Assembly: GCA_041649575.1 (NCBI GenBank)
Contig: JBAZMW010000002.1
Coordinates: forward strand, 30,001 to 62,000
DNA length: 32,000 bases
DNA from: Patescibacteria group bacterium
GTDB lineage: Bacteria > Patescibacteriota > Patescibacteriia > 2-01-FULL-39-33
Direction of reading: 5' to 3'
Shown: positions 1 to 31,202 of the stretch, piece after piece
Layout: each line of letters opens with the position of its first letter
Position numbering within the stretch: position 1 is the stretch's first letter
Position numbers and translations under genes: made by a program
Notes under the pieces: generated by a model
What the model saw: only the letters and a program-made list of their open reading frames with translations
The model's database searches: none
Told to the model about the DNA's origin: nothing

Positions 1-717
1 TTTCAATGGCTGGCTAATTGTCGGGTCAACTATTTTCGAGACGATTATTTAAACGACCAGTTTTTGGAAAAATTGAAGCGATCCGGCTGTTACAAGCTGA
101 TGTTTGGGGCCGAATCTGGCTCACAGCGGGTTCTCGATTGGCTAAAGAAGGACATCACCGTGGCTCAGATAATCGAGTCTGCCCAGCTGTGCCAAAAGCA
201 TGGTCTGCGAGCCAATTATTCGTTTATGTGCGCTCTGCCGACCGAGACCAAAAAAGAGAGACTGGAAACCCTAGAGTTGATTGACAGGTTGATGGCGATA
301 GGCGATTGCATCGAGATTATCTCGCCCCAACCTTATCGGCCTTATCCCGGAGACGAGTTGGCACAGTATTGCCAAAAGTTAGGCTATCAATTTCCGGATA
401 AACTGGAAGATTGGCCCAAGGTGGTGGCCAAGTCTATGGATAGCAGCTCCAGCAACCTGGAAAATTTTCCCTGGATTAAAAATCCCAATGAGATCCGGCT
501 ACAGAGAGTTTGTTCTATTATCGCTACCAGCAAAAAAGGAATGAGGGGCTATATCAAAAGATACCCACTGGTTCTCGCTCCATTTATTGCCCTGTTTTAT
601 TTATTGGAAAAAACCAGATGGAAATTGAAATTTTTTGGCTGGCCTTTAGAGTATTCGATTTTTATTAACTTGTATTGGCAGACGCAAAAATTGAGAAAAA
701 AATTATTTATCAAATAA
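1..717 (+). CDS. Radical SAM enzyme, C-terminal part (5' end lies upstream of the window); probably the class-B/B12-domain type like its neighbours
   Basis: Frame 1 is open from nt 1 (FQWLANCRVNYFRDDYLNDQFLEKLKRSGC...), so the TTG at 64 in the ORF track is not a real start. The block KLKRSGCYKLMFGAESGSQRVLDWLKKDITVAQIIESAQLCQKHGLRANYSFMCALPTETKKE is collinear with LMKKAGCSRIHYGVESGVDRVLENLRKGITVEMV...YFMVGCPGETMDD of the complete rSAM at 10980..12395. The tail is hydrophobic and basic. Confidence 0.8.
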   Translation, partial: FQWLANCRVNYFRDDYLNDQFLEKLKRSGCYKLMFGAESGSQRVLDWLKKDITVAQIIESAQLCQKHGLRANYSFMCALPTETKKERLETLELIDRLMAIGDCIEIISPQPYRPYPGDELAQYCQKLGYQFPDKLEDWPKVVAKSMDSSSSNLENFPWIKNPNEIRLQRVCSIIATSKKGMRGYIKRYPLVLAPFIALFYLLEKTRWKLKFFGWPLEYSIFINLYWQTQKLRKKLFIK

Positions 718-718
718 G

Positions 719-1798
719 ATGAAAATTTGTTATTTTGGCATTTATAATCCCAAGTATAGTCGCAATAGAGTTATTATTAAAGGACTAAAAGAAAATGGCA
801 TAGAAGTCATAGAGTGCAGCAGCAATTTATCCGGGCTTAGAAAATATTTTGATTTAATAAAAAAACACAAAAAAATTAAAAAAGATTACGACTTAATGAT
901 TGTTGGCTTTCCCAGCAATCAGGCGGCGTTTCTGGCCAAATTTCTGACTCGAAAACCGGTGATAGCCGATGCTTTCGTGTCTTTTTATGATTCGATGATC
1001 TTTGATCGAAAAAATCATTCCCCTCGCAGTTTACCGGCGCTCTATTATTGGTTTTTAGATTGGTTGCCGGCACGGTTTTCCGATTTAGTTTTATTAGACA
1101 CCCGAGTCCACATTAATTATTTTGTGCGCACCTTCGGCATAAGAGAGGAGAAGTTTGAACGCGTTTTGGTGGGAACTGATGAGAGTGAGATATATTTTGA
1201 CCCGGCCTTAAAGAAAAAACTTGATTATTTTTTGGTTCATTACCATGCTAGCTTTTTACCGCTCCAGGGAACCGAATATATTATTAAAGCGGCCAAAATT
1301 TTGGAAAAAGAAAATATCAGGTTTAATATTATTGGCAGTGGCCCGGAATATAATAAGATTATCAAGTTGGCTCAAAGCCTGGAGACTAATAACACGGAAT
1401 TCATCAAGCCAGTCCCTTATGAGAAATTAAGGCAATATATTTCGGTGGCCGATATTTGTTTAGGGATTTTTGGCCAAACACCTAAGACCAGCCGGGTTAT
1501 ACCCAACAAAATTTATGAAGCGATTGCTTGTGGCAAAGCAGTGATTACCGCTGATGAGCCGGCTATCCATGAAGTGTTTACCGATGGTAGTAATATTGTT
1601 TTGTGTCACTCGGCTGATCCGAAAGATTTGGCAGAAAAAATTTTGTTTCTAAGAGATCACCAAGCGCTAAGACAGAGGATTGCCGATAGTGCCTATGAAT
1701 TTTTTCTATATAAACTAACACCAAGAGTTATAGTGGAGCAACTGATCAAGAGATTGAAAAAAGAATTCTTAAACGATAAAGCCAGAGAGAATGTATAA
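719..1798 (+). CDS. Glycosyltransferase, GT-B fold (GT4/GT1-like)
   Basis: 359-aa ORF whose ATG lies 1 nt after the upstream stop. The N-terminus MKICYFGIYNPKYSRNRVIIKGLKENGIEV and the C-terminal donor-binding-like block PNKIYEAIACGKAVITADEPAIHEVF are typical of GT-B enzymes. The family call is from motif memory only. Confidence 0.7.
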   Translation: MKICYFGIYNPKYSRNRVIIKGLKENGIEVIECSSNLSGLRKYFDLIKKHKKIKKDYDLMIVGFPSNQAAFLAKFLTRKPVIADAFVSFYDSMIFDRKNHSPRSLPALYYWFLDWLPARFSDLVLLDTRVHINYFVRTFGIREEKFERVLVGTDESEIYFDPALKKKLDYFLVHYHASFLPLQGTEYIIKAAKILEKENIRFNIIGSGPEYNKIIKLAQSLETNNTEFIKPVPYEKLRQYISVADICLGIFGQTPKTSRVIPNKIYEAIACGKAVITADEPAIHEVFTDGSNIVLCHSADPKDLAEKILFLRDHQALRQRIADSAYEFFLYKLTPRVIVEQLIKRLKKEFLNDKARENV

Positions 1799-3269
1799 AA
1801 TCACAAGTCCCCATGATATTTTACTTATTCTGCCACCGAAGCGGTTTAAGGAACACCGTTATTCTTTGGGTTTGATGTATATCTCTGGTTATTTGCGCGA
1901 TCATGGCTATGATAATACTATAATTGAAAGCAAGATTTTTGGCGGTAAAGATTATCAGTACGACCGAGAGAAAGCTAGAGAAGAAATTATTGAAATAGTA
2001 GTGCGCCTCAAACCAAAAATCATTGGTTTTACTTCCACCACCATTGAGATTAATGAGGTAATTTGGTTAAATCGGGAAATTCGTTCAAAAATCGATAGTC
2101 ATTCTATAATCGGCGGTTCTCACGCGACGGCCATGCCAGAGCAAACACTTCTCTCTGGCTTTGAGGCGGTGGTGTTGGGCGAGGGAGAAGAGACAACGCT
2201 GGAGTTGGTTAGAGAGCTGGAAAAAGATAAGCCTAATTTGTCATCGGTTGGCGGTATTGCTTGGCTGGACAGGGGCTCTAATCGAGTTGTCATAAACAAA
2301 TCGCGAGAACAAATCGATATTTCTCAATTGTCGTTGCCAGCTTATGACAAGATAAATATGGATTATCATACGCGCCTGGGAGACGATATAATCCGTGGCT
2401 TTCCGATTAGAGCGGCTATGGTGATGGCTTCTCGCGGCTGTCCTTATAGTTGCACTTTTTGTGGTTGTAATCGGATTTTCGGCCACCAGATTCGTTACCG
2501 CAGTTTGGACAACATCAAGGAGGAAATAAAGCTTTTAAGAGACAAATATGGTGTCGAGGGAATTTGGTTTGCGGATGACACTCTGACTGTAAGTTATGAC
2601 CATGTCCAAAAAGTTTGTGACATTATGAAAGAACTAGGAATGTATTGGGGTGCGCAGTCGAGAGTGGATTTAACCAATGAAAAAATGGTAAAATTAATGA
2701 GTTCCAGTGGCTGTCTCCAGCTCGATTTCGGCGTCGAATCAGGGAATCAAAGGGTGTTGGATAAAATTATAAATAAAAGAATAAAATTAGCTGAAGTAGA
2801 AAAAGCTTTTATTTTATGCCGGAAATATCACCTCAGGACGCAAGCCAGTTTTATGATCGGCTTTCCCACAGAAACCAAAGAGGAGATGGAAGACACTTTT
2901 AGGTTTGCCCAAAAAATTAAACCAGATTATTATTCTTTTAATATTTTAATGCCCCTGCCAGGGACAGAGATCTATGAAAAATATTTCAAGGGCGAGATAA
3001 CTCTAGCAGATTATGAGGACGTTAACTTTCATAAAACGAAAGACAAGTTTAATAAGTCTCAAGTAAAAGATTTAAATCGACTGCACGCCCAGTGGCGCAG
3101 CAAGCTTTTTGAGGGTGTTAAAATTCGAAGCTTAATTCATCCTCTCAAGGTCTTGGTCTTGTTTTTAAGACTTGGCCACAAGAGAGAGAGGGTGAAGTTT
3201 ATCGGTTTTAAAATAAAAAGAGCTACAAAATATTTTCTCAATAAACTCGGTTTTAAGTTTGTTTTATGA
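1791..3269 (+). CDS. Class-B radical SAM enzyme with N-terminal B12-binding-like domain
   Basis: The N-terminal Rossmann-like signature is ILLILPP...SLGLMYISGYLRDHGY...IIGGSHATAMPE...VVLGEGEE. The rSAM cluster motif is ASRGCPYSCTFC (CxxxCxxC). Downstream are FGVESGNQRVLDKI and MIGFPTETKEEM. The start overlaps the upstream gene by 8 nt. Confidence 0.88.
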   Translation: MYKITSPHDILLILPPKRFKEHRYSLGLMYISGYLRDHGYDNTIIESKIFGGKDYQYDREKAREEIIEIVVRLKPKIIGFTSTTIEINEVIWLNREIRSKIDSHSIIGGSHATAMPEQTLLSGFEAVVLGEGEETTLELVRELEKDKPNLSSVGGIAWLDRGSNRVVINKSREQIDISQLSLPAYDKINMDYHTRLGDDIIRGFPIRAAMVMASRGCPYSCTFCGCNRIFGHQIRYRSLDNIKEEIKLLRDKYGVEGIWFADDTLTVSYDHVQKVCDIMKELGMYWGAQSRVDLTNEKMVKLMSSSGCLQLDFGVESGNQRVLDKIINKRIKLAEVEKAFILCRKYHLRTQASFMIGFPTETKEEMEDTFRFAQKIKPDYYSFNILMPLPGTEIYEKYFKGEITLADYEDVNFHKTKDKFNKSQVKDLNRLHAQWRSKLFEGVKIRSLIHPLKVLVLFLRLGHKRERVKFIGFKIKRATKYFLNKLGFKFVL

Positions 3270-4417
3270 AAATGATTTATATTGCCAACGCTAGAATTCC
3301 CACAGAGAAAGCCCATGGTTATCAAATAATGAAAATGTGCGAATCTTTTGCCGATCTGGGAGTTAAGGTTGATTTGATTCTGCCATATCGGAGCAATAAA
3401 CAGTTTCGGGGAGTAGCGTCATTCAAACATTATCTAGTAAAAAATAATTTTACGATTAAAAAAATTTATTGTCCCGACCCAGTTTTTTTAATGAATAAGT
3501 CGGGCTGGTATATAAAAATTCAATCATTATTTTTTTCTTTAGGGCTATTGATTTATTTGGTTTTTAAATCAAGAAAAGATGAAATTATTTATACTAGAGA
3601 CGAATATTTTTTGTCTTGGTTAACGTGGTTTCCTAATAAAGTGATTTGGGAGGCGCATGACTTGTTAAGATCACGGCAGACGAAGCAGTGGCTTAAATGT
3701 TTTAGAATCATGACCATCACCCAGGGTTTAAAGGATGAGATGACGAGACTGGGCGTACCAGAAGAAAAGATTTTGGTGGCGCCGGACGGTGTCGATTTGA
3801 AGCTATTTGCAGGAATTTCTAATTCAAAAAAAGATTTAAGAGAGGAATTAGCTCTGCCGCTAGAAGAAAAAATTATCCTTTATGCTGGTCATCTTTATGA
3901 TTGGAAAGGGGCAGATACTTTGGCTCAAGCCGCCACTTTTTTAAAAAATGAAAACGTTAAATTTGTCTTCGTTGGTGGAATAGGCAAAGACTTAGAAGCT
4001 TTTACCAAGAGTTATGGTGGAGAAAAAAATATTCTAATTGTCGGTCAGGTGAATCGATCTGTGGTGCCAAAATATTTAAAGGCGGCGGATGTTCTGATTT
4101 TGCCCAATTCCGCCAAGCGGGAAATCTCCAGTCACTACTCCTCACCTCTGAAGCTTTTTGAATATATGGCCAGTGGTCGGCCGATAATTGCTTCCCGTCT
4201 CGATTCTTTACAGGAGGTTTTAACCGACGAAGAATGTATTTTTTTCTCTCCCGATGATGCTATTGATTTGGCGCAAAAGATTAGCCACCTATTATCAAAT
4301 AAAGAGTTGGCCGAGAAAGTGGCCGCCAAAGCCGGAGAGAAAGTAAAAGATTATACCTGGGAAAATCGCGCTAAAAATATTATTAAATTTATAAAATATG
4401 CTGGATCAGTATCTTAA
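3266..4417 (+). CDS. Glycosyltransferase family 4-like (GT-B)
   Basis: The start overlaps the upstream stop as ATGA. The N-terminus is IYIANARIPTEKAHGYQIMKMCESFADLG. The C-terminal block SPLKLFEYMASGRPIIASRLDSLQEVL is the EX7E-type region of retaining GT4 enzymes. Confidence 0.85.
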   Translation: MKMIYIANARIPTEKAHGYQIMKMCESFADLGVKVDLILPYRSNKQFRGVASFKHYLVKNNFTIKKIYCPDPVFLMNKSGWYIKIQSLFFSLGLLIYLVFKSRKDEIIYTRDEYFLSWLTWFPNKVIWEAHDLLRSRQTKQWLKCFRIMTITQGLKDEMTRLGVPEEKILVAPDGVDLKLFAGISNSKKDLREELALPLEEKIILYAGHLYDWKGADTLAQAATFLKNENVKFVFVGGIGKDLEAFTKSYGGEKNILIVGQVNRSVVPKYLKAADVLILPNSAKREISSHYSSPLKLFEYMASGRPIIASRLDSLQEVLTDEECIFFSPDDAIDLAQKISHLLSNKELAEKVAAKAGEKVKDYTWENRAKNIIKFIKYAGSVS

Positions 4418-5078
4418 TAAAAACACCGATCTCGATTCCAGCCAAAAGGCCTGGGAGCGTTCGTGGTGCAAGCAGTCTTTTGGTTTTGCTAGAGTCATCG
4501 ACGTTGGTCGAAGAATCTATAATTATTTTTTACTGCGATTTTTAAAGAATCACATTAATGGCCAGGCCGAATTTTTGGAACTGGGTTGCGGCACAGCCAC
4601 CCTGGGCCTGAAACTGGCCCATTATGTCAAAGCATATACTGGTTTTGATATCGCGCTCAATGCATTACAGGAAGCAGAAAAGAATTTTAGAAATAGCGGG
4701 CTGAGTAATTTTAGTTTTGCGATTAAAGATATCACTAATTTTGATTGCGAACAGAGGTTTGATGTGGTTTGGTCCCAGGGACTAATTGAGCATTTTCCCG
4801 AGCCGGCCAAATTAATTGACGCTCATCTGCAGGCTTGTAAAAGAGGCGGTAAAGTTATTATTTCCGTCCCGGCTAGGAATTCCTATCATTATATTTGGTA
4901 TCTACTCACCCGGCCGAAATGGCTAAGACGTTTTTGGCCCTGGCCGGATGAAATTTTTATATCTGACAAAATGTTTAAAGAATATCTTAAATTGTTGGTA
5001 AATGATTATCAAAAATATACCCTAACTTCCTTAAGGCCTCGGTTCCTGGGGTTGTCAATCTTGATTATTGAAAAGTAA
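4398..5078 (+). CDS. Class I SAM-dependent methyltransferase
   Basis: Motif I is FLELGCGTATLG. The post-I acidic residue is in GFDIA. Further matches are DVVWSQGLIEHFPEP and CKRGGKVIISVP. The start overlaps the upstream gene by 20 nt. Confidence 0.8.
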   Translation: MLDQYLNKNTDLDSSQKAWERSWCKQSFGFARVIDVGRRIYNYFLLRFLKNHINGQAEFLELGCGTATLGLKLAHYVKAYTGFDIALNALQEAEKNFRNSGLSNFSFAIKDITNFDCEQRFDVVWSQGLIEHFPEPAKLIDAHLQACKRGGKVIISVPARNSYHYIWYLLTRPKWLRRFWPWPDEIFISDKMFKEYLKLLVNDYQKYTLTSLRPRFLGLSILIIEK

Positions 5079-5084
5079 TTTTTT

Positions 5085-6824
5085 ATGATGATCAAAAAAC
5101 ATTACTGGGCTTTTATTCTGGCAATTATAGTTGGTGTTTTATATCTGGCACCACAACTTTTTTTTATATTTTCTTTGGGTGATAAGTTTCAAGGAGTTTA
5201 CCGTACGCTTAATGATGACGAGCTTTATTATATGTCGCGGGCGCAGGAAGTGGTTGATGGGCATTATCTTATTAGTAATCCTTATTTTGCCGAATATAAA
5301 AATAGTTTGCCAATGCAGGTTTTTTTGCCGGATTTGATTATCGCCTTGCCGGCTAAATTGCTGGGAATTAGCGTTGGTCAGCTGTATACTTTTTACGATT
5401 TTTTATTCCCGGCCGTTTTGTTTACCCTGACTTACTTTATCTTTTATCTTTTGACAAAAAATAGATTGTGGTCCTTAGTTTTTGGCTCTTTTCTGCTTCT
5501 GATAAAATATTTTTACGTTTTTAATCGTCCGATGAATCCCCAGTTTGTTTTTATTTTTGTTCTCAGCTTAATTTTATTATGGTTGATAATCTTATCTCGG
5601 TCCCGAGATCAGAATAAAAAAAATAACTGGCTGGTTGTTTTGGCTGGAATAAATCTGGGCCTGCTGTTTAACTTCTACACCTACTTTTGGACGTATTTTG
5701 TCACTATTATTTTTATTTTATTGATTTATTTTTTATACAAAAAAGATTTTTATTTTTTGAAAAAATTTTTTGGCATTGGTCTGATCGGCTTAGTTGTTGG
5801 CATTCCGTATTTTTATCAGGCCTGGCAATCAAGCAGGTTAATTTTTTTCCAGGAGACGATTCAGCGAATAGGACTTATAAACACGCGGCTTCCCTCGGGA
5901 ATCGTGATTAGTTTTTTGGCGCTGCTGATCATGGTTTTATTTATTATCTTTTGGCGTTTTGCTTCTAAAAGAGGAGCTAAAATAGCCAACACGGAAGTTT
6001 TTCTTTTTTTGGGCACACTGGCCGCTTTGGTTAATATGAATCAGCACCTGATCACTGGAAAAAATATATTTTTTTCTAGTCATTATGACTTAATCTCTTT
6101 CTTCTTTATTGGTTTTTCTTTTGTCTATCTTCTGTGGCGAAGCAGGATAGTTGTTTTTTTGGCCAGCTTGAAAGCCCTGTCAATAGTGGCCCTATTGACA
6201 ATAGTTGTTATTTTTTCATCAGTTTTTTCTAATTCGTTAAAATTTGATTATTCTGCCGAATTAAATAACCAAAGATATGCTTCGATTTTTGATTGGCTCA
6301 ATGACAATACAACGAAGGACTCGGTAGTCATGACGGATTCAGTGCTAAGCGAATATTTGCCGGCTTATACCCACAATAATGTATTCTTTAACTTTGGTGG
6401 CGTGCTATTTTTTGTAAGTAATCAGGAAATTTTGAATCGATTTGTTTTAAATAATTTTTGGCGTCAGAATTTTAATGAAGAATTTGTCAAGGAAAATTTC
6501 AAATCGGTTTACGGCTATCAATACGATGCTCAGGGCGGTCGGGCCAAACAAGTGAATAACTTCAAAAAAATATTTAATCTCCAAGGTGACGAGCTGGAAA
6601 AGATTTATTTTCCGCCAGATAAAATCAAGGCGGTTATTGACTATTATCACCAAACCAAAGAAGAGGATTGGGCCATAGCTTTCAAAAAATATCAGATTGA
6701 TTATTTAGCGGTCGATGAAACGATCACCAATAATTGGCAAGTGGATTTAAAAAAGTTTAGCTTTTTGCGGCCAATCTATGAAATGAATAAAATAAAGTTA
6801 TATCAGGTAGATTTTACAAAATGA
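5085..6824 (+). CDS. Polytopic membrane protein, GT-C-like glycosyltransferase candidate (YfhO/ArnT/PMT-like architecture) with a C-terminal soluble domain
   Basis: The 579-aa product has about 12 hydrophobic segments by eye over aa 1-380, then a roughly 190-aa non-hydrophobic C-terminus. The first-loop acidic motif NDDELYYMSRAQEV resembles the DExxY...R...E first periplasmic loop motif of ArnT/GT39-type enzymes. The coding call is strong; the function is inferred. Confidence 0.55.
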   Translation: MMIKKHYWAFILAIIVGVLYLAPQLFFIFSLGDKFQGVYRTLNDDELYYMSRAQEVVDGHYLISNPYFAEYKNSLPMQVFLPDLIIALPAKLLGISVGQLYTFYDFLFPAVLFTLTYFIFYLLTKNRLWSLVFGSFLLLIKYFYVFNRPMNPQFVFIFVLSLILLWLIILSRSRDQNKKNNWLVVLAGINLGLLFNFYTYFWTYFVTIIFILLIYFLYKKDFYFLKKFFGIGLIGLVVGIPYFYQAWQSSRLIFFQETIQRIGLINTRLPSGIVISFLALLIMVLFIIFWRFASKRGAKIANTEVFLFLGTLAALVNMNQHLITGKNIFFSSHYDLISFFFIGFSFVYLLWRSRIVVFLASLKALSIVALLTIVVIFSSVFSNSLKFDYSAELNNQRYASIFDWLNDNTTKDSVVMTDSVLSEYLPAYTHNNVFFNFGGVLFFVSNQEILNRFVLNNFWRQNFNEEFVKENFKSVYGYQYDAQGGRAKQVNNFKKIFNLQGDELEKIYFPPDKIKAVIDYYHQTKEEDWAIAFKKYQIDYLAVDETITNNWQVDLKKFSFLRPIYEMNKIKLYQVDFTK

Positions 6825-6884
6825 GGTTTTTGTGTTAAAGTAGCCTAATAAATTAGAAGGAAAAAGCCATAAAAATAAGCGATT

Positions 6885-8657: not shown

Positions 8658-8663
8658 ACTTTT

Positions 8664-9536: not shown

Positions 9537-9541
9537 TAATA

Positions 9542-10306: not shown

Positions 10307-10316
10307 TAAAAATAAA

Positions 10317-10973: not shown

Positions 10974-10979
10974 GAAATA

Positions 10980-12395: not shown

Positions 12396-12414
12396 TAAAA
12401 AATTGGTTTTTTAA

Positions 12415-13908: not shown

Positions 13909-13910
13909 AT

Positions 13911-15098: not shown

Positions 15099-15133
15099 AA
15101 AAAGTCAAAACTTGAGAATTAAAAAGTAAACCG

Positions 15134-22258: not shown

Positions 22259-22262
22259 AAAG

Positions 22263-23279: not shown

Positions 23280-23298
23280 TTTATTTTTTTTGCCAAAA
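23268..23298. repeat. 8-bp inverted repeat (TTTTGGCA / TGCCAAAA, 15-nt AT-rich loop) spanning the two convergent stop codons
   Basis: Read directly from the sequence: 23268..23275 is ttttggca and 23291..23298 is tgccaaaa. Each arm is inside the last codons of a SPASM rSAM gene, and both proteins end ...FWQ(KK). The function is unknown; it could be a weak bidirectional terminator. Confidence 0.5.
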
Positions 23299-24270
23299 AA
23301 AGAAGATGTCTGCGTACATATTCCAAACATCACACTTGGCGCAGATGGAAATCTGGTCATACTTACCTTGAAGATGAAGTTGCCTATATTTTTTTATCAA
23401 TTCTGAATTCCAAATTTTATTAACGGTTTGGTCACTGGCGTTTCCCAAGACGCCCACTCTGGCTAGGTCGTCGCAACAAATGGAGACATCGCCGTTAAAA
23501 TGGACAGCCGGGGAAAACCACAGATGATAACAAGGATATCTTTTGTGATTTTTTCTGACATGGCTTTTTGCCACGTTGCCGCCATAATTGTGTTGGTCTC
23601 GCAGTTCGATGATGACTTTTTCGTTTTGCCATTTGGAAATGAAGTTTTTTGCCTGCGATTGCGTGTCATCGTCAACAATCATCCGGACAAAAATTTTTGG
23701 TTTTGCCGCCCGCCCCTTAATTTTTATCAGCTCTTTGACGTTTTTTTCCACTTCATCTAGTTTGTCCACCCCGGTTTTTTCGCGGTAGGTTTGCGCTTCC
23801 GGGCTTAGGAAACTAATGGAAACCTTGTCAATCCCGATTCTAACAATCTGTTCTGCGATGGTCGGAGACAGTAGAGATCCGTTGGTGGTTAAGGAAATGC
23901 TGTTTCGCCGATTTTTTTCTTTGATGTATTTGGCCATCTCCATGAGCCGTGGGTTAATCAGCGGTTCACCAGACAAATGGAGAGAAAAATTTCTCGGGCC
24001 ATAATTGGCCGCCTCATTAACTATCTTTTTAAAAAAATCAAAATCCATACTACCGATCAGGGTTTTGCCGGTTATCCGGGCGCAGATGCGGCAATTGAAA
24101 TTACAAACAGAGGTCGATTCCAAAAAAATATGTTGAGGGAAATCATAATTGATCATCCTTTGGACAAAGACTTTTTTAAACCAGCTAAGAGGCGGGAAAT
24201 TACTCCAATCATCTAGTTTTTTGACGTTGATTTTAGAATTTAGATAGCTGAAAAAATCATTTTTAGTCAT
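23281..24270 (-). CDS. Radical SAM enzyme with an abbreviated SPASM/twitch-type C-terminal domain
   Basis: The cluster motif is ESTSVCNFNCRIC, with LSGEPLI as the GGE-like motif. The C-terminus is CYHLWFSPAVHFNGDVSICC (CX12GX4CC) followed by CAKCDVW (CX2C). It is the last gene of the - array, and its start overlaps the upstream gene as ATGA. Confidence 0.8.
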   Translation of the reverse strand: MTKNDFFSYLNSKINVKKLDDWSNFPPLSWFKKVFVQRMINYDFPQHIFLESTSVCNFNCRICARITGKTLIGSMDFDFFKKIVNEAANYGPRNFSLHLSGEPLINPRLMEMAKYIKEKNRRNSISLTTNGSLLSPTIAEQIVRIGIDKVSISFLSPEAQTYREKTGVDKLDEVEKNVKELIKIKGRAAKPKIFVRMIVDDDTQSQAKNFISKWQNEKVIIELRDQHNYGGNVAKSHVRKNHKRYPCYHLWFSPAVHFNGDVSICCDDLARVGVLGNASDQTVNKIWNSELIKKYRQLHLQGKYDQISICAKCDVWNMYADIFFFWQKK

Positions 24271-26660
24271 GGAGATGGGTTTATTTTTTTAAAAGGCACT
24301 GGTTTAAAGATGGTCATAATTGCTCCCCATAAGCTGGTTAGGATAAAATTAAGCAGAATAATTTCAGATAGTAGTACCAGTGATTCAGTGGATTTTACCA
24401 GCGGCCCCAAAAGAATAATAAGCGCGGCCTCTCTGGTGCCGATACCCAGAAAAGATATGGGCAGCAGGCTTAGAAAGGAAGCGATCGCGACAGAGGTTAT
24501 CAGTTCAGGAAAACTGACGACGGTTAAATTTATAGCCTGGCCGAAAAAGTAAATCTGTCCCGAATAAATTACCCAAGAAAGAGCCGTGATCAAAAATCCT
24601 ATAAAATACGTTTTGTAATTGTAGGTTTTTAGGCCGGTTTTAAAACTATTAATCTCGCTAGTCAGGCCAGCAGGCATCAGCCGATAAAATATTTTTTCAA
24701 TAAATTTTCTAAAAAATTTATTTTTTATGGCCAGCAGCGCCGCCAGAATCAGCAGGATGATTACAAGGTAGAGTAGAAAGAATTTTTCCAAATAACGACT
24801 GAAAAAGAAAATCAAACCAACTAAGCTAAATAGTAGTAAAAAAAATAAATCAAACAATCTATCCATAATAACGCTTACCAGAGACTCTCCTGATTTATAG
24901 CCTTTGGCTTTCAAATAATAAATTTTGATCAGTTCGGCGATCCGGCCGGGCGTAACGGAAGCAAAACCCAAGGCCGCGATATAGATTTTAAATGATTCCA
25001 TTATTTTGTAAACAATGCCTTGTTTTTTCTTAAGATAATTCCAACGCCAGGCCCTTACAAAAAGGTAAGGAACAGTTAAAAGCATGCCGAATAGCATAAG
25101 GGCATAGTTCATGGTTTTTAAAAGCTGGATCGTGGCCGTCCAGTTGATTTCCTTGGCAATAATAACAACCAGAACCAAACTAATTAGAAAATAATATTTT
25201 TTGGAAATAGTTTTCAACGGCCGATAAAAGGGAGAGTTTTTAATGATCAATTTCAAAAGCTTGATTCCCGCCCGTAAATTATTTTTTAAATTATTCCAAC
25301 TGCGCAATTCTAAAATTCTTCTTAAAATATAACGTGGCGCAAGGTAATATGAGCGGTAGGCGGCAATCACCATGGAAAACAGTTCCTTTCGGGAAAAAGT
25401 TTCGTCCCAAACCGGCGGCAGAAAATCTGGTTTAGGGTCGAGCGCGAATTTTTGCCAGAAATCTTCTTTAAAAACGCCTTCTTTTTTCCCCATTAGATAT
25501 AAATCAGTAGCCGCGGGAAACAAGGTTAGCACAGAAAAGTGGACATAGTCGGGAAAAAGTTTTTTGGCTAATTTGATCGTTGCTTTGATATCGGCTTCAG
25601 TTTCATGAGGCGAACCGATCATAAAATACCCGGCCGTTTCTATGCCCGCCTTTTTCGTCAGGGCAAAAGCCTTTTTGACCATGGGCATAGAGATATCTTT
25701 TCTTAATATTTTGAGGATTTTTTCCGTACCCGCTTCAACACCGTAGTGGATTCTGGTGCAGCTAGCCTTTTTCATTAATTTTAACAACTCTTCATCCACG
25801 GTGTTGACCCTAGCTCTCACATCCCAATTTATTTTTAATCCCTTTTGGATAATGAGGCGGCAGATATCTATCACTCGTTGGCGGTCAATGGTAAAAGTGT
25901 CGTCGTAAATGAAGATTTCTTTAATGCCTAATTTTTTTATCTCTTCCATTTCCGCGACCACATTGGGAGCGCTCCGAGCCCTGAAAGCCTTGCCCATGTG
26001 CGGCCGATCGCAGAACAGGCATTGGTAGGGGCAGCCACGCGAGGTGAACATAATGGTCGTGGGATTTTTCTGGGCTACTATGGAGTAATATTTTTTGTAA
26101 GGAGTGAGTTCTCTGGCTGGAAAGGGCAAAGAATCCAAATCTTGAATTAATTCCCTTTTTCCAGTATTGATAATCTTCCCACCTTCCTTAAAAATCAGTC
26201 CTTTGATGTTTTTTGTTTTTTCCGGATTATCAAGATTATCAAGTAATTCGGCTAAGGCTATCTCGCCTTCACCTACCACCAGATAGTCAACAAAATCGTT
26301 ATTAATGGTTTCTTCTGGATAAAGATAGGTATGAGGTCCGCCCAATATTATTTTTATCTGCGGGTTGGCTTTCCTCACGGCCTGGGCGATTAGGTAAACA
26401 TCGATTAAGGAAAAAGTCAAAACCGTGATGCCGATTGCATCAGGATCCTCGGCCACAATCCTGGAAACAATTTCCTCATTGCTGATGTCCTCCATCGGAC
26501 AATCCAGCACTTTTACCTGGTGAGGAGTATTTTTTTGTAGGTAGCCGGCCAAATATAAAAGACTTAGAGGCGGTAAAAAATCCATGCCCGATTCCAGTTC
26601 TTTGGGCATGTCGCTTTCAATTATTTTGGCGAGCGGCGGGTTAATTAAGAGTATTTTCAT
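24267..26660 (-). CDS. Fusion protein: class-B radical SAM (aa 1-~475, nt ~25235..26660) plus an 8-TM flippase-like domain of the UPF0104/LPG_synthase_TM (MprF N-terminal, HpnL-like) type (aa ~485-797, nt 24270..~25208)
   Basis: The N-terminal half has ILLINPP...LPPLSLLYLAGYLQKN...ILGGPHTYLYP...LVVGEGE, TSRGCPYQCLFC and YGVEAGTEKILKIL. The C-terminal half has about 8 hydrophobic helices plus family hallmarks: VRAWRWNYLKK, TPGRIAELIKIYYLK and LLPISFLGIGTREAALIILL. It is a single uninterrupted 797-codon ORF. Confidence 0.85.
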   Translation of the reverse strand: MKILLINPPLAKIIESDMPKELESGMDFLPPLSLLYLAGYLQKNTPHQVKVLDCPMEDISNEEIVSRIVAEDPDAIGITVLTFSLIDVYLIAQAVRKANPQIKIILGGPHTYLYPEETINNDFVDYLVVGEGEIALAELLDNLDNPEKTKNIKGLIFKEGGKIINTGKRELIQDLDSLPFPARELTPYKKYYSIVAQKNPTTIMFTSRGCPYQCLFCDRPHMGKAFRARSAPNVVAEMEEIKKLGIKEIFIYDDTFTIDRQRVIDICRLIIQKGLKINWDVRARVNTVDEELLKLMKKASCTRIHYGVEAGTEKILKILRKDISMPMVKKAFALTKKAGIETAGYFMIGSPHETEADIKATIKLAKKLFPDYVHFSVLTLFPAATDLYLMGKKEGVFKEDFWQKFALDPKPDFLPPVWDETFSRKELFSMVIAAYRSYYLAPRYILRRILELRSWNNLKNNLRAGIKLLKLIIKNSPFYRPLKTISKKYYFLISLVLVVIIAKEINWTATIQLLKTMNYALMLFGMLLTVPYLFVRAWRWNYLKKKQGIVYKIMESFKIYIAALGFASVTPGRIAELIKIYYLKAKGYKSGESLVSVIMDRLFDLFFLLLFSLVGLIFFFSRYLEKFFLLYLVIILLILAALLAIKNKFFRKFIEKIFYRLMPAGLTSEINSFKTGLKTYNYKTYFIGFLITALSWVIYSGQIYFFGQAINLTVVSFPELITSVAIASFLSLLPISFLGIGTREAALIILLGPLVKSTESLVLLSEIILLNFILTSLWGAIMTIFKPVPFKKINPSP

Positions 26661-28099
26661 TTATTTTTTGGCTTTGGTTTAAATAGAATTCGTCCTAATA
26701 TTAGCATACCCAAAAATACGGTTTTTATTCCGTCCCAGGAATTAAGTTGTTTTAATTTGCGAATAATATATTTTGGTCTGAGATAAAACTCGCGGAAGGC
26801 TCTTTTTTGCCAATAGACTAGATCGGCTGGCGTCAGGCTTCTCTGAACCGGCAGAGGCGCCGTATTGCTTAAAGGAGCGAATCTTTCCCAGGGGGTGTCT
26901 TTGGAAATAAGGCCTTCTTTTTGGGCGTAGTAGTACAAATCAGAGCCAGGCACGGGACAGGTGATGAAAAAAGTGGCGTTATCTAAATCTAGGCTTTTGG
27001 CAAAATCAATAGTTTCTCTTATGGTTTCTTCGGTTTCGCCAATATTGCCGAGCATGAAACTGGCGTGCGCCAAGATGCCGTGGCGTCTGGCGATACTGAT
27101 GGCGCGTTTTCCAATCTCGGTGGTAGTTTGTTTGCGCATCAAGCTTAGCACTTTTTGCGAGCCCGACTCCAGCCCAAAAGATATTTTTTTGCATCCGGCT
27201 TTAGCCATTATTTCCGCCAGTTCGTCGCTGATTGTATCGGCTCTAGAGGAACAGATCCAGGCGATGGGCAGTTTTTTGTCAATTATTTTCTGGCAGATTT
27301 CAAATGCCCTGGGCCGGTTTAAGGTAAAGTTATCATCCAAGATGTTAAATTCTTTGATGTTGAATTTATTAATGCATTCTTCGATCTCCGCAATAACGTT
27401 GTCAGCGCTCCGGTATCGCAGGCGACGTTGCCAAATACTTTTGGAAACACAATGCACACAATCGAAGTTGCAACCTCGGCTGGTTTGTAAGGGGGAACAC
27501 TGTTCCTCGGTCAGTTTCTTGGTGGGAGCGGAATAATATAATTTTAGGTCGAATAAATCACGGGCAGGAAAGGGGATATCGTCTAAATTTTGAATCATCT
27601 GGCGGGGCGGGTTGTTTATTATTTCCCCCCGGCGTTTAAAGTATAAACCGTTTATTTTTTCAAAATCGGTTTTTTTATCCGAAAGAGTTTTAACTAATTC
27701 ATAAAAAGTTTCTTCTCCCTCACCAATGACCGCAAAGTCGACGTAAGGATTACTCATCACTTCTTGAGGTAAGATGGTGGGATGAGTGCCGCCAAGAACC
27801 GTGACACAATTTAATAATTCTAAGTCTTCTTTAATGATCCGGCAGATTTCGAGAACATGGTTAATCGTCGGCGAGAGGCAGGTGAAGCCGACGATATCTG
27901 GTTTTTCCTTGGCCAAAAAATTTTTTATTTCTTCATAGCCCAAGGCCATGGCTTCCGTGTCGAGGATTTTTATTTCACAGTCGATTTTGGCACGCAAATA
28001 GCCGGCCAGGTAGGCCAGATTAAACGGCATGGCGTGGCCGCCAGATTCTTTCATGCCCTCGAAGTTTATGTAGGGAGGGTTAACAAGTATGATCTTCAT
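26657..28099 (-). CDS. Class-B radical SAM enzyme with B12-binding-like domain
   Basis: Matches are IILVNPP...AMPFNLAYLAGYLRAK...LGGTHPTILP...AVIGEGEE, the motif TSRGCNFDCVHC, FGLESGSQKVLSLM, MLGNIGETEETI and the conserved C-terminal block REFYLRPKYIIRKL with a hydrophobic/basic tail. Confidence 0.9.
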   Translation of the reverse strand: MKIILVNPPYINFEGMKESGGHAMPFNLAYLAGYLRAKIDCEIKILDTEAMALGYEEIKNFLAKEKPDIVGFTCLSPTINHVLEICRIIKEDLELLNCVTVLGGTHPTILPQEVMSNPYVDFAVIGEGEETFYELVKTLSDKKTDFEKINGLYFKRRGEIINNPPRQMIQNLDDIPFPARDLFDLKLYYSAPTKKLTEEQCSPLQTSRGCNFDCVHCVSKSIWQRRLRYRSADNVIAEIEECINKFNIKEFNILDDNFTLNRPRAFEICQKIIDKKLPIAWICSSRADTISDELAEIMAKAGCKKISFGLESGSQKVLSLMRKQTTTEIGKRAISIARRHGILAHASFMLGNIGETEETIRETIDFAKSLDLDNATFFITCPVPGSDLYYYAQKEGLISKDTPWERFAPLSNTAPLPVQRSLTPADLVYWQKRAFREFYLRPKYIIRKLKQLNSWDGIKTVFLGMLILGRILFKPKPKNK

Positions 28100-28117
28100 A
28101 TGCTTTTGATTTTTATT

Positions 28118-28948
28118 CTAAAGATTATAATTTTCTATTGACAGGCAGTCAAAATTTTTTAAAACGTAATTTAATTTTTTCCAAGTTTTTTGCGCCTGGC
28201 CGTATTTGATGATTTTTCTAATTTTAGGCATCTTGAAATCAGGCGGCTCGCCCAGAAAATCAAAAGGGTGGAAATAAAGACAGGCTGGATTGTTTTTAAG
28301 TTTGAGCCGAAGCAATTTTCTAAACACGAACCAGGGGATAATTCTTAAATAGACACCACCCGCAATGGGAATTCTTATTAGCTTACCGTCAAAAACAGCC
28401 AAGGGCATTTCTTTGATGCCGTTTATCTGGTAAGGGTTGATTTCCCCTTTTTTGTGGCCGTAATTTCTGCTTTTAAAAAATTTAAAAATAAAGTTTGGCA
28501 GACTAAAAGGGAATAGAGAAGAATCAAACTTGATACCTTTTGACGCCAGCACAGGTAGTGCCCAAAAAGTAGAAGAATCCAAAGAAAAATTGACAGCGCG
28601 GTGGCTGACCGGTCTTTTGCTGGTCAGGGCTGTAATCTTGTCCACCAAAATTTCTATTTCTTTTTTAAAGTTGTCGGAATTTTTCTGCCAAAGCGGCCGG
28701 TGATCCAGGGAGTGCAGGCCGATTTCTTGACCAGCGTCATTTATTTTTTTAATTAGGTTTGGCTCGTTTTCTATAACTTTTCCGGTCACAAAAAAAGTGG
28801 CCGTTGCTTTGTTATTTTTTAATAGCGGTAGAATTTTTTCCGTAAAGCTTTCCAGGTTTTCCCGTTCGTTGCCCTTAAGATATCTTTGCAAAGACAAAGA
28901 TTCAAACCAATATTCCAGGTCAAAAGTTAGAATTACTGGATTCATCAC
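28118..28948 (-). CDS. Polysaccharide deacetylase, CE4 superfamily (FDxExW subtype)
   Basis: Matches are ILTFDLEYW (motif 1 variant), GLHSLDH (HxxxH) and VSHRAVNFSL (RAPxFS-like). The track start at 28948 is GTG. An ATG one codon downstream (28943..28945) shares one nt with the upstream TGA and is an equally good start. Confidence 0.72.
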   Translation of the reverse strand: MMNPVILTFDLEYWFESLSLQRYLKGNERENLESFTEKILPLLKNNKATATFFVTGKVIENEPNLIKKINDAGQEIGLHSLDHRPLWQKNSDNFKKEIEILVDKITALTSKRPVSHRAVNFSLDSSTFWALPVLASKGIKFDSSLFPFSLPNFIFKFFKSRNYGHKKGEINPYQINGIKEMPLAVFDGKLIRIPIAGGVYLRIIPWFVFRKLLRLKLKNNPACLYFHPFDFLGEPPDFKMPKIRKIIKYGQAQKTWKKLNYVLKNFDCLSIENYNL

Positions 28949-29835
28949 TGGCGGTTGTTAATTTCTCTTCTAATAGCGGCAATCTGATCGGCCAAAAGAC
29001 CAAAGAAAAAGACGAGAATAGACGCAATAAAGAGGAAAATGGTGCTGTCGGAAAGATTTATAGAAATAAGATCAAAAGCCAGGAAAATTAAAGCGACTAT
29101 AAATAGAATCAGGCTGACCGGAAAAAAAATACGTAGCGGAGAAAAAGTCATAATCAGACGGAAAATCAGCATTAAAGTAGTGAAACCATCGCGCGGTTTG
29201 ACCGTGCTTTTGGAACCACCCTCTCTTTTGTTTATTTCAATAGGCAGAAATTTAACATTTTTTTTGTCTTTCAAAAAAGCCAGGGTAGAAGTGGTGGACA
29301 TGGAAAAACCATTAGGCATCAGGTGCAAGTAGTTTTTAAGAATATTTTTTTTGACCAGGCGTAAGCCGCAGTTTAAATCAGGGATTTTATAATCCACCAG
29401 GTAATTGGCAACAACTCTCAGCAACCACAGGCCTGGTTTTCGCAGAGTCGGCCTGACATATTTGCCGCCAGTCCGATCGCCAGCGATTAGTTCATAGTCA
29501 TTAATATGAGCGATAAAGTTTTTTATATCTTCAGGACGATGTTGGCCGTCGGAGTCAAAAAATAAAATCCAATCATGCCCCGAATTAAGGACTCCGGTTT
29601 TCAGGGCGGCACCATAACCTTTGTTGTAGGGATGGTTTATTAGTTTTATACCTTCAATTTTATTTAGAACTTCTTTGCTATCATCTGTCGAACCGTCATT
29701 TATAACAATAATTTCATGTTCTATTCCCAGACCAATAAGTTCTTTTTTAAGCATTTCCACTGTTTGCTGGACTTTTTGACTTTCATTGTAGACTGGAACG
29801 ACTACAGATAAATTTATTGTTTGATTGTTTTCCAT
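28945..29835 (-). CDS. GT2 polyprenyl-phosphate glycosyltransferase (GtrB/ArnC/HpnI-like architecture); paralog of 8664..9536
   Basis: Matches are LSVVVPVYNESQKV, VINDGSTDDS, HPYNKGYGAALKTG and the DXD motif FFDSDG. There are two C-terminal TM helices (FFPVSLILFIVALIFLAFDLI and IFLFIASILVFFFGLLADQI). Confidence 0.85.
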   Translation of the reverse strand: MENNQTINLSVVVPVYNESQKVQQTVEMLKKELIGLGIEHEIIVINDGSTDDSKEVLNKIEGIKLINHPYNKGYGAALKTGVLNSGHDWILFFDSDGQHRPEDIKNFIAHINDYELIAGDRTGGKYVRPTLRKPGLWLLRVVANYLVDYKIPDLNCGLRLVKKNILKNYLHLMPNGFSMSTTSTLAFLKDKKNVKFLPIEINKREGGSKSTVKPRDGFTTLMLIFRLIMTFSPLRIFFPVSLILFIVALIFLAFDLISINLSDSTIFLFIASILVFFFGLLADQIAAIRREINNRQ

Positions 29836-29843
29836 AAATATTT

Positions 29844-31202
29844 TTATCTCCCTCTGCCTCCCAACGCCACCTTAATGGTTTTAAGTAAAATACTTAGATC
29901 CATCAGCAGCGAACGGTTTTTTATATAATATAAATCATATTTAACTTTTTCCAGAGATTCTTCCTTGGAGCCGCCATAAGCCGGTCCGTTGAGTTGGGCC
30001 CAACCGGTAAGCCCAGGCTTCACCAGCAGCCGTTCCCTGTAAAAAGGCACCTCTTGGGCCAAAATTTGGATAAATTCTGGTCTTTCTGGCCTAGGCCCGA
30101 CCAGACTCATTTCTCCTCGTAAGATGTTAATTAATTGGGGGATTTCATCCAGCCTGGTTTTACGCATTAATCTGCCGAAACGAGTCACTCTCGGATCGTT
30201 TTCACTGGCCCATTGTGGCCCGTTTTTCTCGGCGTTATCAAACATCGAGCGGAATTTCATGGCCAAAAAATTTTTACCGTTTTTGCCAACGCGTATTTGC
30301 TTAAAGACCACCGGTCCCGGACTTTCTAATTTTATGATCAGAGCTATTGGCGGCGCGATAAATATGGCCACTAGCAGGCCGAGTAAAGCCAGAAAGACAT
30401 CCATGATTCTTTTGCTGATCTCATAAAGTTTTTTGGAATGTTCGGCCAAGTTTTCCAAAAACCAGCTGTGTTCCAGATATTCAGCCGGCACTTTATTGGT
30501 TATCTGCTCGTAAAAGCTGTTGATATTATAAACATCAACGCCTAGCGACAAACAGTCGAAGATTTTTCGCGAGATTTCATCATTATTTTTTAAACTATTG
30601 GCGCTGACCAGGATATCCACCTGGTTTTCTTGGCAATATTTTTTTAAATCTTCGGGAACATTTTGGTTGTTTATGGCTTGATACCCTAGTTGCGGCTTAT
30701 GATTTATCTCTCTGATTAACGAATCAGCCAGCGGTGATTGACCAATGATCAGCACCTTATTGCTAATGGCCGAGGATTTTATAAAGGTATAGAATATCCG
30801 ACGCCACAAAAAAGAGAAAACCAAGGAAATAATCACATCTATCGCAAGGACTCTTTGCGGTTTAATACTTCCTAGAAAAGGATTGAAAAAATAAAAAATA
30901 GCTATAGCTATCAGAATGTTTATAACATAAACACGAACTAGCAGATTTAACAGGTTGTTTATATTATAACTTATTTTTAAATCATAAAGCTCGTTAATAA
31001 AAAAAACCAATAACCAGATAACAAAAACCACAGTAAACATAATTACATGTCCTGACCAGAAATAACCGATGTCCTTTAGGCCGTATCTGATAATTAAGGT
31101 CAAGTATAAACCTAGATATAAAGTGGCCAGGTCGCCTAACAAAAGGATGACCTTTTTTGTTTTAATAAAGAAATTAGCCATAATTTTAAGCGATAACTTC
31201 AA
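29844..31202 (-). CDS. Polyprenyl-phosphate glycosylphosphotransferase (WbaP/'bacterial sugar transferase' family), priming enzyme
   Basis: The N-terminus has about 4 TM helices, followed by a central Rossmann-like region. The C-terminal catalytic domain has KRIMDVFLALLGLL...PGPVVFKQIRVGKNGKNFLAMKFRSM...DPRVTRFGRLMRKTRLDEIPQLINILRGEMSLVGPRPERPEF. The track start at 31202 is TTG. The ATG at 31179..31181 (MANFFIKTKK...) is a plausible alternative start. Confidence 0.9.
   Translation of the reverse strand: MKLSLKIMANFFIKTKKVILLLGDLATLYLGLYLTLIIRYGLKDIGYFWSGHVIMFTVVFVIWLLVFFINELYDLKISYNINNLLNLLVRVYVINILIAIAIFYFFNPFLGSIKPQRVLAIDVIISLVFSFLWRRIFYTFIKSSAISNKVLIIGQSPLADSLIREINHKPQLGYQAINNQNVPEDLKKYCQENQVDILVSANSLKNNDEISRKIFDCLSLGVDVYNINSFYEQITNKVPAEYLEHSWFLENLAEHSKKLYEISKRIMDVFLALLGLLVAIFIAPPIALIIKLESPGPVVFKQIRVGKNGKNFLAMKFRSMFDNAEKNGPQWASENDPRVTRFGRLMRKTRLDEIPQLINILRGEMSLVGPRPERPEFIQILAQEVPFYRERLLVKPGLTGWAQLNGPAYGGSKEESLEKVKYDLYYIKNRSLLMDLSILLKTIKVALGGRGR

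Follow-up and report, generated by a model that had tools for sequence, protein, structure and literature searches.

Why does a single glycan-assembly locus carry so many radical S-adenosylmethionine (rSAM) enzymes, and on what substrate could they act? The question is raised by a stretch of 32,000 nucleotides from a Patescibacteria group bacterium (assembly GCA_041649575.1, contig JBAZMW010000002.1, positions 30,001 to 62,000; the window hereafter), in which ORF calling and Pfam searches identified 9 of the 26 complete or cut open reading frames (ORFs) as rSAM genes, a number well beyond chance expectation. The answer we favour, with moderate confidence, is that this is a cell-envelope glycan locus in which sugars would be chemically altered at the cytoplasmic membrane face while bound to a polyprenyl-phosphate carrier, then flipped and transferred by a GT-C glycosyltransferase, that is, an Arn/Gtr-type pathway to which rSAM chemistry has been added.

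The rSAM protein encoded at 10980-12395 (Bc) and the N-terminal part of the one encoded at 24267-26660 (Bf; Bf::L for the whole protein) belong to one family of about 470 amino acids, called the core family below. Among the candidates scored, 4,496 members were obtained at E ≤1e-10. A pattern scan over one genome per GTDB species showed the family in 490 species-representative genomes. The loci of the 80 best relatives (47-82% identity) were fetched; their hosts are Patescibacteria, anammox Planctomycetota (including the complete Brocadia pituitae genome), Chloroflexota, Nitrospirota, and DPANN and other archaea. ORFs were called in these loci and classified with the window proteins, and 68 of the 80 loci were assessable. 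In 59 of the 68 a family 2 glycosyltransferase (GT2) of the window type lies upstream of the core rSAM gene, on the same strand and within 3.5 kb, and in 38 it is the immediate neighbour. The linkage was seen in Patescibacteria, anammox Planctomycetota, Chloroflexota, Nitrospirota and archaea. In the archaeal metagenome-assembled genomes (DPANN and others; L032, L053, L057, L068, L069, L071, L077 and L079) the core rSAM is 52-54% identical to the bacterial copies and the GT2 is usually found upstream. This identity, together with the shared GT2, suggests that the core rSAM has been transferred between the domains. Some of the fetched records (L009, L011, L013, L016 and others) are labelled 'uncultured Gammaproteobacteria' or 'Candidatus Saccharibacteria' and encode rSAMs 58-82% identical to those of the window; these labels look unreliable.

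In Patescibacteria the GT2-rSAM pair is part of a larger module with the recurrent order polyprenyl glycosylphosphotransferase (PGT), (SPASM rSAM), GT2, (nitroreductase), (methyltransferase), (carbohydrate esterase family 4, CE4, deacetylase with DUF3473), core rSAM, (second rSAM), flippase-like gene, on which the gene of a membrane protein of about 574 amino acids converges. The nitroreductase stands directly 5' of the core rSAM in 13 of the 39 Patescibacteria/other loci. The window holds this module twice. Module 1, on the plus strand (8664-13908), consists of a GT2, a methyltransferase, the nitroreductase, Bc and Bd, and is preceded by X579 and C590 (from 5085). Module 2, on the minus strand (31202-23281), consists of the PGT, a GT2, a CE4 deacetylase, Bg, Bf::L and S2, with X574 and S1 converging on it from the plus strand. 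The two GT2s, G2a and G2b, are 43% identical, and Bc and Bf 58%. The genes of the window are given below; PF02310 is the B12-binding and PF04055 the Radical_SAM domain.

1-717, plus strand: Ba, the C-terminal 238 residues of a 499-residue B12-domain rSAM (C-terminal half of Radical_SAM); the full gene, on contig L002, has PF02310, PF04055 and CPYRCTFC
719-1798, plus strand: glycosyltransferase of family 4 (GT4), Glycos_transf_1 E 7.8e-24; the ortholog in L089, another Patescibacteria genome, likewise adjoins the Bb ortholog
1791-3269, plus strand: Bb, B12-domain rSAM with PF02310 and PF04055, CPYSCTFC at residue 217
3266-4417, plus strand: GT4-family glycosyltransferase, Glycos_transf_1 E 7.4e-26
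4398-5078, plus strand: class I SAM methyltransferase, Methyltransf_31/25/11
5085-6824, plus strand: X579, polytopic membrane protein with about 12 transmembrane helices by hydropathy analysis
6885-8657, plus strand: C590, putative GT-C glycosyltransferase (PMT_2/ArnT-like), PMT_2 34.6 bits against a cutoff of 26.1, 11 transmembrane helices
8664-9536, plus strand: G2a, GT2 of putative polyprenyl-phosphate glycosyltransferase type, module 1, Glycos_transf_2 E 3.7e-29, two C-terminal transmembrane helices
9542-10306, plus strand: class I SAM methyltransferase, module 1, Methyltransf_11/23/25
10317-10973, plus strand: nitroreductase-family flavoprotein, Nitroreductase E 1e-29
10980-12395, plus strand: Bc, core-family B12-domain rSAM, module 1, PF02310 and PF04055, CPYQCVFC
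12415-13908, plus strand: Bd, divergent B12-domain rSAM, PF02310 and PF04055, CPHACAYC
13911-15098, plus strand: glycosyltransferase of family 9 (GT9), Glyco_transf_9 E 4e-19
15134-16471, plus strand: Wzx-type (MOP) flippase, Polysacc_synt 52.6 bits against a cutoff of 28.2, 11 transmembrane helices
16455-17075, plus strand: class I SAM methyltransferase, Methyltransf_11
17072-18526, plus strand: Be, B12-domain rSAM, PF02310 and PF04055, CPHRCTFC
18527-19285, plus strand: CE4 polysaccharide deacetylase, Polysacc_deac_1 E 1e-17
19263-20537, plus strand: GT4-family glycosyltransferase, Glycos_transf_1 and Glyco_transf_4
20534-22258, plus strand: X574, predicted GT-C-fold glycosyltransferase (AlphaFold2 model and Foldseek), conserved partner of the Patescibacteria module
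22263-23279, plus strand: S1, rSAM with a Cys-rich SPASM-like C-terminus, Radical_SAM E 1.2e-25, CNLACGFC, 7 C-terminal Cys
23281-24270, minus strand: S2, rSAM/SPASM protein, module 2, Radical_SAM and SPASM, CNFNCRIC
24267-26660, minus strand: Bf::L, core-family B12-domain rSAM fused to a flippase-like LPG_synthase_TM domain, module 2, PF02310, PF04055 and PF03706
26657-28099, minus strand: Bg, B12-domain rSAM, module 2, PF02310 and PF04055, CNFDCVHC
28118-28948, minus strand: D, CE4 deacetylase, module 2, Polysacc_deac_1 and DUF3473
28945-29835, minus strand: G2b, GT2 of putative polyprenyl-phosphate glycosyltransferase type, module 2, Glycos_transf_2 E 3.4e-30, C-terminal transmembrane helices
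29844-31202, minus strand: PGT (start at 31181 according to the gene caller), Bac_transf E 7.9e-68

The genes are tightly packed, with gaps of ≤100 nt. A first-pass annotation, made from the bare sequence, had described nine rSAM genes set among glycosyltransferases, a PGT, a Wzx flippase, deacetylases and three SAM methyltransferases. All nine ORFs were found at the coordinates given, and Pfam and NCBIfam searches confirmed the glycan setting: three GT4, two GT2 and one GT9 enzymes, three class I methyltransferases, two CE4 deacetylases, the Wzx-type flippase and the PGT. The strongest mechanistic clues had gone unmentioned there: the ArnC/GtrB-type GT2 partners, the flippase-like domain fused to the rSAM of 24267-26660 and the three big polytopic membrane proteins starting at 5085, 6885 and 20534. 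The strand, too, has to be corrected to minus for the genes from 23281 to 31202. The gene at 13911-15098 belongs to the GT9 ('heptosyltransferase') family; its bearer is a bacterium of the Candidate Phyla Radiation (CPR), a group not known to synthesise lipopolysaccharide.

The cluster extends beyond the window. Contig L002 corresponds to window positions 1-11798 with 0 mismatches, and a second fetched locus is identical to the window over 17,734 bases. The upstream extension of L002 carries another B12-type rSAM gene, the eighth, about 8 kb from Ba; its neighbours encode a further PMT_2 protein, a methyltransferase, a flavin amine-oxidase-like protein and four additional glycosyltransferases. 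Counted over the window and the overlapping contig, the rSAM genes number at least 10 within a span of about 41 kb. On the downstream side an S8 peptidase, a GtrA-family gene, an epimerase/dehydratase gene and more GT2s follow. The start of the S8 subtilisin-like peptidase gene is at 31300-32000, divergent from the PGT operon, and its product has an N-terminal hydrophobic, signal-like segment.

The locus is not the only one of its kind. About 60 close Patescibacteria orthologs were found for Bb, Be has orthologs in L014, L018, L022 and L060, Bg has them in about 10 other loci (400-860 bits), and S2 recurs in the Patescibacteria modules. In L089 seven rSAM genes lie within 22 kb, six of them B12-type and the seventh a PMT_2-rSAM/SPASM fusion. 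Since Patescibacteria orthologs of Bg, Be and Bb occur and the module is shared, the locus of the window takes to an extreme an architecture that recurs in Patescibacteria, and is not unique. As to conservation of the rSAM set as a block, which the first-pass annotation had proposed to examine by comparative genomics, it is the GT2-rSAM module that is widespread across phyla, and the orthologs of Bg, Be and Bb are met in other Patescibacteria glycan loci.

The six proteins Bb to Bg each contain PF02310 (E 5.5e-16 to 3e-22; 58.9-79.2 bits, cutoff 32.1) and PF04055 (E 3e-17 to 6e-28), and across the window rSAMs PF04055 scores 42-98.5 bits against a cutoff of 29.5. The intact CxxxCxxC core was present, with one motif per protein, in 8 of the 8 complete rSAM ORFs as well as in completed Ba. 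The class B type proposed earlier for seven of the proteins is therefore borne out by the domain pair in six and in completed Ba; the use of cobalamin itself is predicted from the architecture. Of the two proteins called SPASM-type, S2 has the Pfam domain (PF13186, 47.5 bits, cutoff 21.5), while S1 gave no match to Pfam SPASM and a sub-threshold one to DUF3463, and resembles the type by its seven-Cys C-terminus and by sub-threshold NCBIfam neighbours (MftC, PTO1314, PqqE). Apart from the 58% identity between Bc and Bf, all pairs of rSAMs are 24-37% identical, and the divergence claimed for the paralogs is thus real. That they serve different steps and are not redundant is a reasonable extension, with the exception that Bc and Bf are the rSAMs of two copies of one module.

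The best NCBIfam models (bits, with the curated cutoff after the stroke) were HpnJ (TIGR03471) for Bc (216.2/577.6) and Bf (227.9/577.6), BchE for Bg (243.8/481.35) and Be (228/481.35), ApyD for Bb (179/750), a ladderane-lipid model for Bd (95/360), MftC for S1 (127/265) and a tungsten-cofactor maturase for S2 (105/380); on the HpnJ model Bg and Be scored 197.2 and 150.4 bits, also under the cutoff. Relative to its cutoff, the BchE score of Bg is the highest among the named class B models. The scores being sub-threshold, the names HpnJ, BchE, PhpK, HpnR, GenK-type, MftC and the like were rejected for the nine rSAMs.

The fold of Bc was predicted with AlphaFold2 (pLDDT 90.6). The model shows an N-terminal Rossmann domain of the B12 type, an rSAM barrel and a C-terminal helical domain, i.e. 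the class B fold, and in Foldseek it matched TsrM, OxsB, QCMT, CysS and TokK at E 1e-18 to 6e-25. The best superposition was obtained with AprD4 (TM-score 0.74-0.77), and no solved protein is closer in sequence (E 2e-26). This enzyme is a 1,2-diol dehydratase of the glucosamine ring in paromamine, and its related N-terminal domain binds no cobalamin. In Bf and Bg the sequence match to AprD4 is largely confined to the rSAM domain, and the N-terminal domains align by sequence with those of OxsB, CysS and TokK, which do bind cobalamin. The two observations mildly favour a real use of B12.

In Bf::L the core rSAM and a flippase-like domain are joined in one protein, and in other Patescibacteria loci they are separate adjoining genes; among the best 120 matches the fusion was seen only in the window protein and in one 80% identical to it. 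Several Bb orthologs from further Patescibacteria carry a class I methyltransferase as fusion partner, and the order GT4-Bb-GT4-methyltransferase is kept. Among the relatives of Bd (P0448, P0402, P0458) there are a 1034-residue fusion of B12-rSAM, GT2 and methyltransferase and a fusion of B12-rSAM with PEMT. An 854-residue protein of L089 (16111-18675, on a contig of 958 kb) joins a PMT_2 GT-C domain to rSAM/SPASM. All the fusion partners are enzymes of glycosylation, methylation or membrane lipids. One Bd relative of the same set carries an intein insertion with a LAGLIDADG domain.

Among the partner proteins, G2a and G2b match PF00535 (102-106 bits) and have C-terminal transmembrane helices at residues 240-287 and 236-282. 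The solved structures nearest to G2b by sequence are ArnC (from three species), DPMS and GtrB, all of them polyprenyl-phosphate glycosyltransferases, a type which both window GT2s appear to fit. X574 was modelled from 37 homologs (AlphaFold, pLDDT 90.4), and its top Foldseek matches, at probability 1.00, were AglB, PglB, STT3, ArnT, ALG9/12 and DPY19. PMT_2 was weakly matched in 11 of 20 X574 homologs, a profile of X574 found no match among PDB sequences, and hhalign related it weakly to C590 (probability 12%). On the strength of the model X574 is assigned as a predicted GT-C glycosyltransferase; it is present in 20 of the 39 Patescibacteria/other loci. Outside Patescibacteria, too, the pair has GT-C neighbours (PMT_2 or YfhO/PTPS_related) in 5 of the 10 loci sampled, and the row in Brocadia pituitae reads GT2, rSAM, GT2-methyltransferase fusion, membrane protein, PA14-PMT_2 protein. 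In Brocadia the GT-C proteins near the pair have PA14 and GLEYA carbohydrate-binding domains fused to PMT_2 (L033:15158-17857, L044:4449-7031). X579, for which no match in Pfam or NCBIfam and no detectable relation to X574 were found, is possibly a polymerase or a fourth GT-C.

The membrane domain of Bf::L belongs to the flippase-like LPG_synthase_TM family by the curated cutoffs (PF03706, 133.7 bits against 33.4; TIGR00374, 68.4 against 43.2), and flipping itself is a predicted function. Deacetylase D has neither signal peptide nor transmembrane helix and matches ArnD weakly. Signal peptides and transmembrane anchors are absent from D and from all the rSAMs except the Bf::L fusion, which fits chemistry at the cytoplasmic face, as for ArnD. 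The PGT is well above the cutoff of TIGR03025 (372.7 bits, cutoff 295.55). For the nitroreductase a role as BluB, the enzyme of the B12 lower ligand, finds no support (82 bits, cutoff 150), the nearest solved structures being generic nitroreductases; this flavoprotein could supply electrons or process a cofactor.

In pathways of the Arn/Gtr type a GT2 loads a sugar onto polyprenyl phosphate, and the sugar is modified on the cytoplasmic side of the membrane, flipped and transferred by a GT-C enzyme. Tailoring on such a lipid carrier is what the ArnC/GtrB-type GT2s, the fusion with a flippase-like domain and the three membrane proteins resembling GT-C enzymes argue for. The analysis shows gene content, domain architectures, fusions, gene linkage across phyla and predicted folds, and from these we infer a lipid-linked substrate, an order of steps and a kind of chemistry. 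The GT2 would load N-acetylhexosamine (HexNAc) onto polyprenyl phosphate and the deacetylase would free the amine. The B12-domain and SPASM rSAMs, with the SAM methyltransferases, would then change the sugar skeleton. The product would cross the membrane by way of the flippase-like domain, and the GT-C enzyme would hand it to an extracytoplasmic acceptor. Since rSAM enzymes require SAM and a reduced cluster, they would have to act in the cytoplasm, and the tethering of an rSAM to a flippase-like domain fits a modification just before export. A parallel line of PGT, GT4, GT9 and Wzx would build the main chain, and Ba, Bb and Be may act between glycosyl additions, as the gene order and the Bb fusions suggest.

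Several results weigh against this proposal. In the NCBIfam scan no rSAM family reached its curated cutoff for any of the nine window rSAMs, and the GT2s are under the cutoffs of the named equivalogs AglJ, PpgS and ArnC. Deacetylase D shares the Polysacc_deac_1 and DUF3473 architecture with the XrtA/PEP-CTERM deacetylase and reached 139.5 bits on that model (TIGR03006, cutoff 276.2). In Foldseek the likeness of X574 to oligosaccharyltransferases is at least as strong as that to ArnT. The anammox, Chloroflexota and Nitrospirota loci examined lack the flippase-like gene. In the Patescibacteria loci the PGT usually stands beside the GT2, and so the substrate could be a polyprenyl-diphosphate oligosaccharide and not a monophosphate-linked monosaccharide. 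The roles suggested for Ba, Bb, Bd and Be derive from gene position and from the fusions of their relatives. As to cobalamin, the nearest solved match, AprD4, does not bind it, Patescibacteria are not known as B12 producers, and the Rfam scan of the window gave no cobalamin riboswitch, nor any other RNA family.

The rSAMs might instead tailor soluble nucleotide-sugar precursors before lipid transfer, as in aminoglycoside pathways, so that the membrane proteins would only assemble and export the product. Characterised sugar-acting relatives such as AprD4, the best structural match, do use soluble substrates, most of the window rSAMs are soluble proteins without transmembrane helices, and the epimerase/dehydratase gene lies just outside the window. 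However, this explanation leaves the rSAM-flippase-like, PMT_2-rSAM and rSAM-PEMT fusions unexplained, and it accounts neither for the near-universal adjacency of an ArnC/GtrB-type GT2 nor for a CE4 deacetylase placed between GT2 and rSAM, as in the Arn and Hpn pathways. We consider it unlikely.

Alternatively, the end product would be no GT-C donor at all but a membrane glycolipid with a rearranged head group, similar to the cyclitol ether of bacteriohopanetetrol made through HpnI, HpnK and HpnJ, or to calditol. In NCBIfam the core family comes closest to HpnJ, and GT2, deacetylase, B12-type rSAM and LPG_synthase_TM mirror hpnI, hpnK, hpnJ and hpnL. There is also a precedent in Cds, an rSAM enzyme of archaeal lipid synthesis by which a lipid-linked hexose is converted to a cyclitol. 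But the HpnJ scores of 216-228 bits are far from 577.6, the GT2 matches ArnC, DPMS and GtrB and not HpnI, and the window deacetylase is CE4 and not of the HpnK type; moreover, GT-C transferases are conserved as neighbours, and no hopanoid genes were present in any locus read. The glycolipid is in our judgement rather improbable, less likely again than the soluble precursors. A role of the rSAMs in ribosomal-peptide maturation or in the direct modification of a surface protein, the glycosylation genes being bystanders, is highly improbable and was rejected: although the best NCBIfam model of Bb is the peptide enzyme ApyD and those of S1 and S2 include peptide maturases, all far under cutoff, no precursor-like ORF, peptidase/transporter cassette or peptide-pathway neighbour lies inside the block, with its gaps of ≤100 nt, and the conserved neighbours and fusions are all glycosylation or lipid enzymes.

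If the sugars are tailored on a lipid carrier, as we favour, which reaction could the core family catalyse? Its best NCBIfam neighbour, HpnJ, and the best superposition, AprD4, both act on glucosamine glycosides. HpnJ is believed to follow HpnI and HpnK in its pathway and to bring about the ring contraction of glucosaminyl-bacteriohopanetetrol. That HpnJ and Cds act on hexosamine or hexose glycosides fits the presence of a deacetylase in the module. C-methylation is the commonest class B reaction. By analogy, the candidate reactions are C-methylation, an HpnJ/Cds-like ring contraction and an AprD4-like dehydration, C-methylation being equally possible. The heavily C-modified glycan predicted by the first-pass annotation stays plausible; with HpnJ and AprD4 as neighbours, C-methylation is one option. 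As a tentative suggestion, which we regard as more probably wrong than right, the core family may be a new kind of rSAM that rearranges or C-alkylates an aminosugar on polyprenyl phosphate, the product being exported by the flippase-like domain and the GT-C enzyme to the cell surface, in an undescribed pathway passed among CPR bacteria, DPANN archaea, anammox bacteria, Chloroflexota and Nitrospirota. Within that suggestion a ring contraction like that of HpnJ or Cds, giving a carbocyclic or branched unit, is a possibility. CPR cells would then depend on scavenged cobalamin.

Although rSAM chemistry is familiar in antibiotic, cofactor, lipid and peptide pathways, it is hardly known in envelope glycan assembly. 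In the literature searched we found no description of this locus system, of the GT2-rSAM pair, of rSAM tailoring in lipid-carrier decoration or of rSAM-flippase and GT-C-rSAM fusions, and no report of rSAM action on polyprenyl-phosphate-linked sugars; nor did it contain a characterised locus of equivalent rSAM density. A GT2-rSAM pair at about 50% identity across bacterial phyla and archaea, in 490 species genomes, stands for a reaction that is widespread but has received no study. Patescibacteria are host-dependent, with genomes of about 1 Mb. For such a genome it is a large investment to devote more than 40 kb and ten iron-sulfur enzymes, which may require cobalamin, to one surface glycan, and this suggests a product of importance to attachment or to the evasion of recognition. 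Enzymologists have defined targets in the GT2-rSAM pair and in the fusion of rSAM and flippase-like domain, and a testable substrate hypothesis is offered for the HpnJ-like enzymes and the HpnL-like proteins, two groups still lacking an established function.

Among known systems, the class B methylases and rearranging enzymes (TsrM, TokK, CysS, QCMT/MgmA, OxsB, GenK, HpnP/R) share the domain layout of the window proteins, but identity is 17-21% and a lipid-carrier glycan setting is described for none of them. AprD4 has an aminosugar substrate and is the top sequence and superposition match of Bc; on the other hand its NCBIfam model is scored at 123 (cutoff 500), and no AprD3-like partner was identified. 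HpnI, HpnK, HpnJ and HpnL match the module type for type and in logical sequence, and act there on a lipid-anchored N-acetylhexosamine; the function of HpnL, the flippase-like partner, is still unexplained. The window differs from that pathway in its polyprenyl-phosphate-type GT2, in another deacetylase family and in the GT-C partners, and HpnJ is not reached by score. Hopanoid biosynthesis genes were found neither in the window nor in L001/L002, nor in those related loci that were read, and both score and context speak against membership in the Hpn family. Cds of Sulfolobus remodels a lipid-linked hexose head group into a carbocycle, and the core family occurs in archaea too; the lipid of Cds is a glycerol dialkyl glycerol tetraether and not a polyprenyl carrier, and the comparison drawn here is one of reaction. 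A lead comes from the S-layer O-glycan of Kuenenia, an anammox bacterium related to Brocadia, in which methylated HexNAc and an unidentified 174-Da residue were both assigned by mass only; the gene pair itself was read in Brocadia.

The Arn and Gtr-type systems (GtrB/GtrA/GtrC; CsbB/GtcA/YfhO; PpgS/Rv3779) have no rSAM enzymes. The window operon includes a PGT, its GT2s and deacetylase score under the equivalog cutoffs, and its flippase-like domain is of the LPG_synthase_TM/MprF type in place of ArnE/F or GtrA; a GtrA gene is nevertheless found shortly beyond the window. What is shared is a GT2 with C-terminal transmembrane helices, a flippase and an outside GT-C, and with Arn also the deacylation of the lipid-linked sugar by ArnD, for which the window has the CE4-type D. 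The frame of lipid-carrier decoration and the superfamilies of the parts are thus known, and what appears new against the literature searched is the rSAM tailoring inside it, the GT2-rSAM pair and the rSAM-flippase and GT-C-rSAM fusions.

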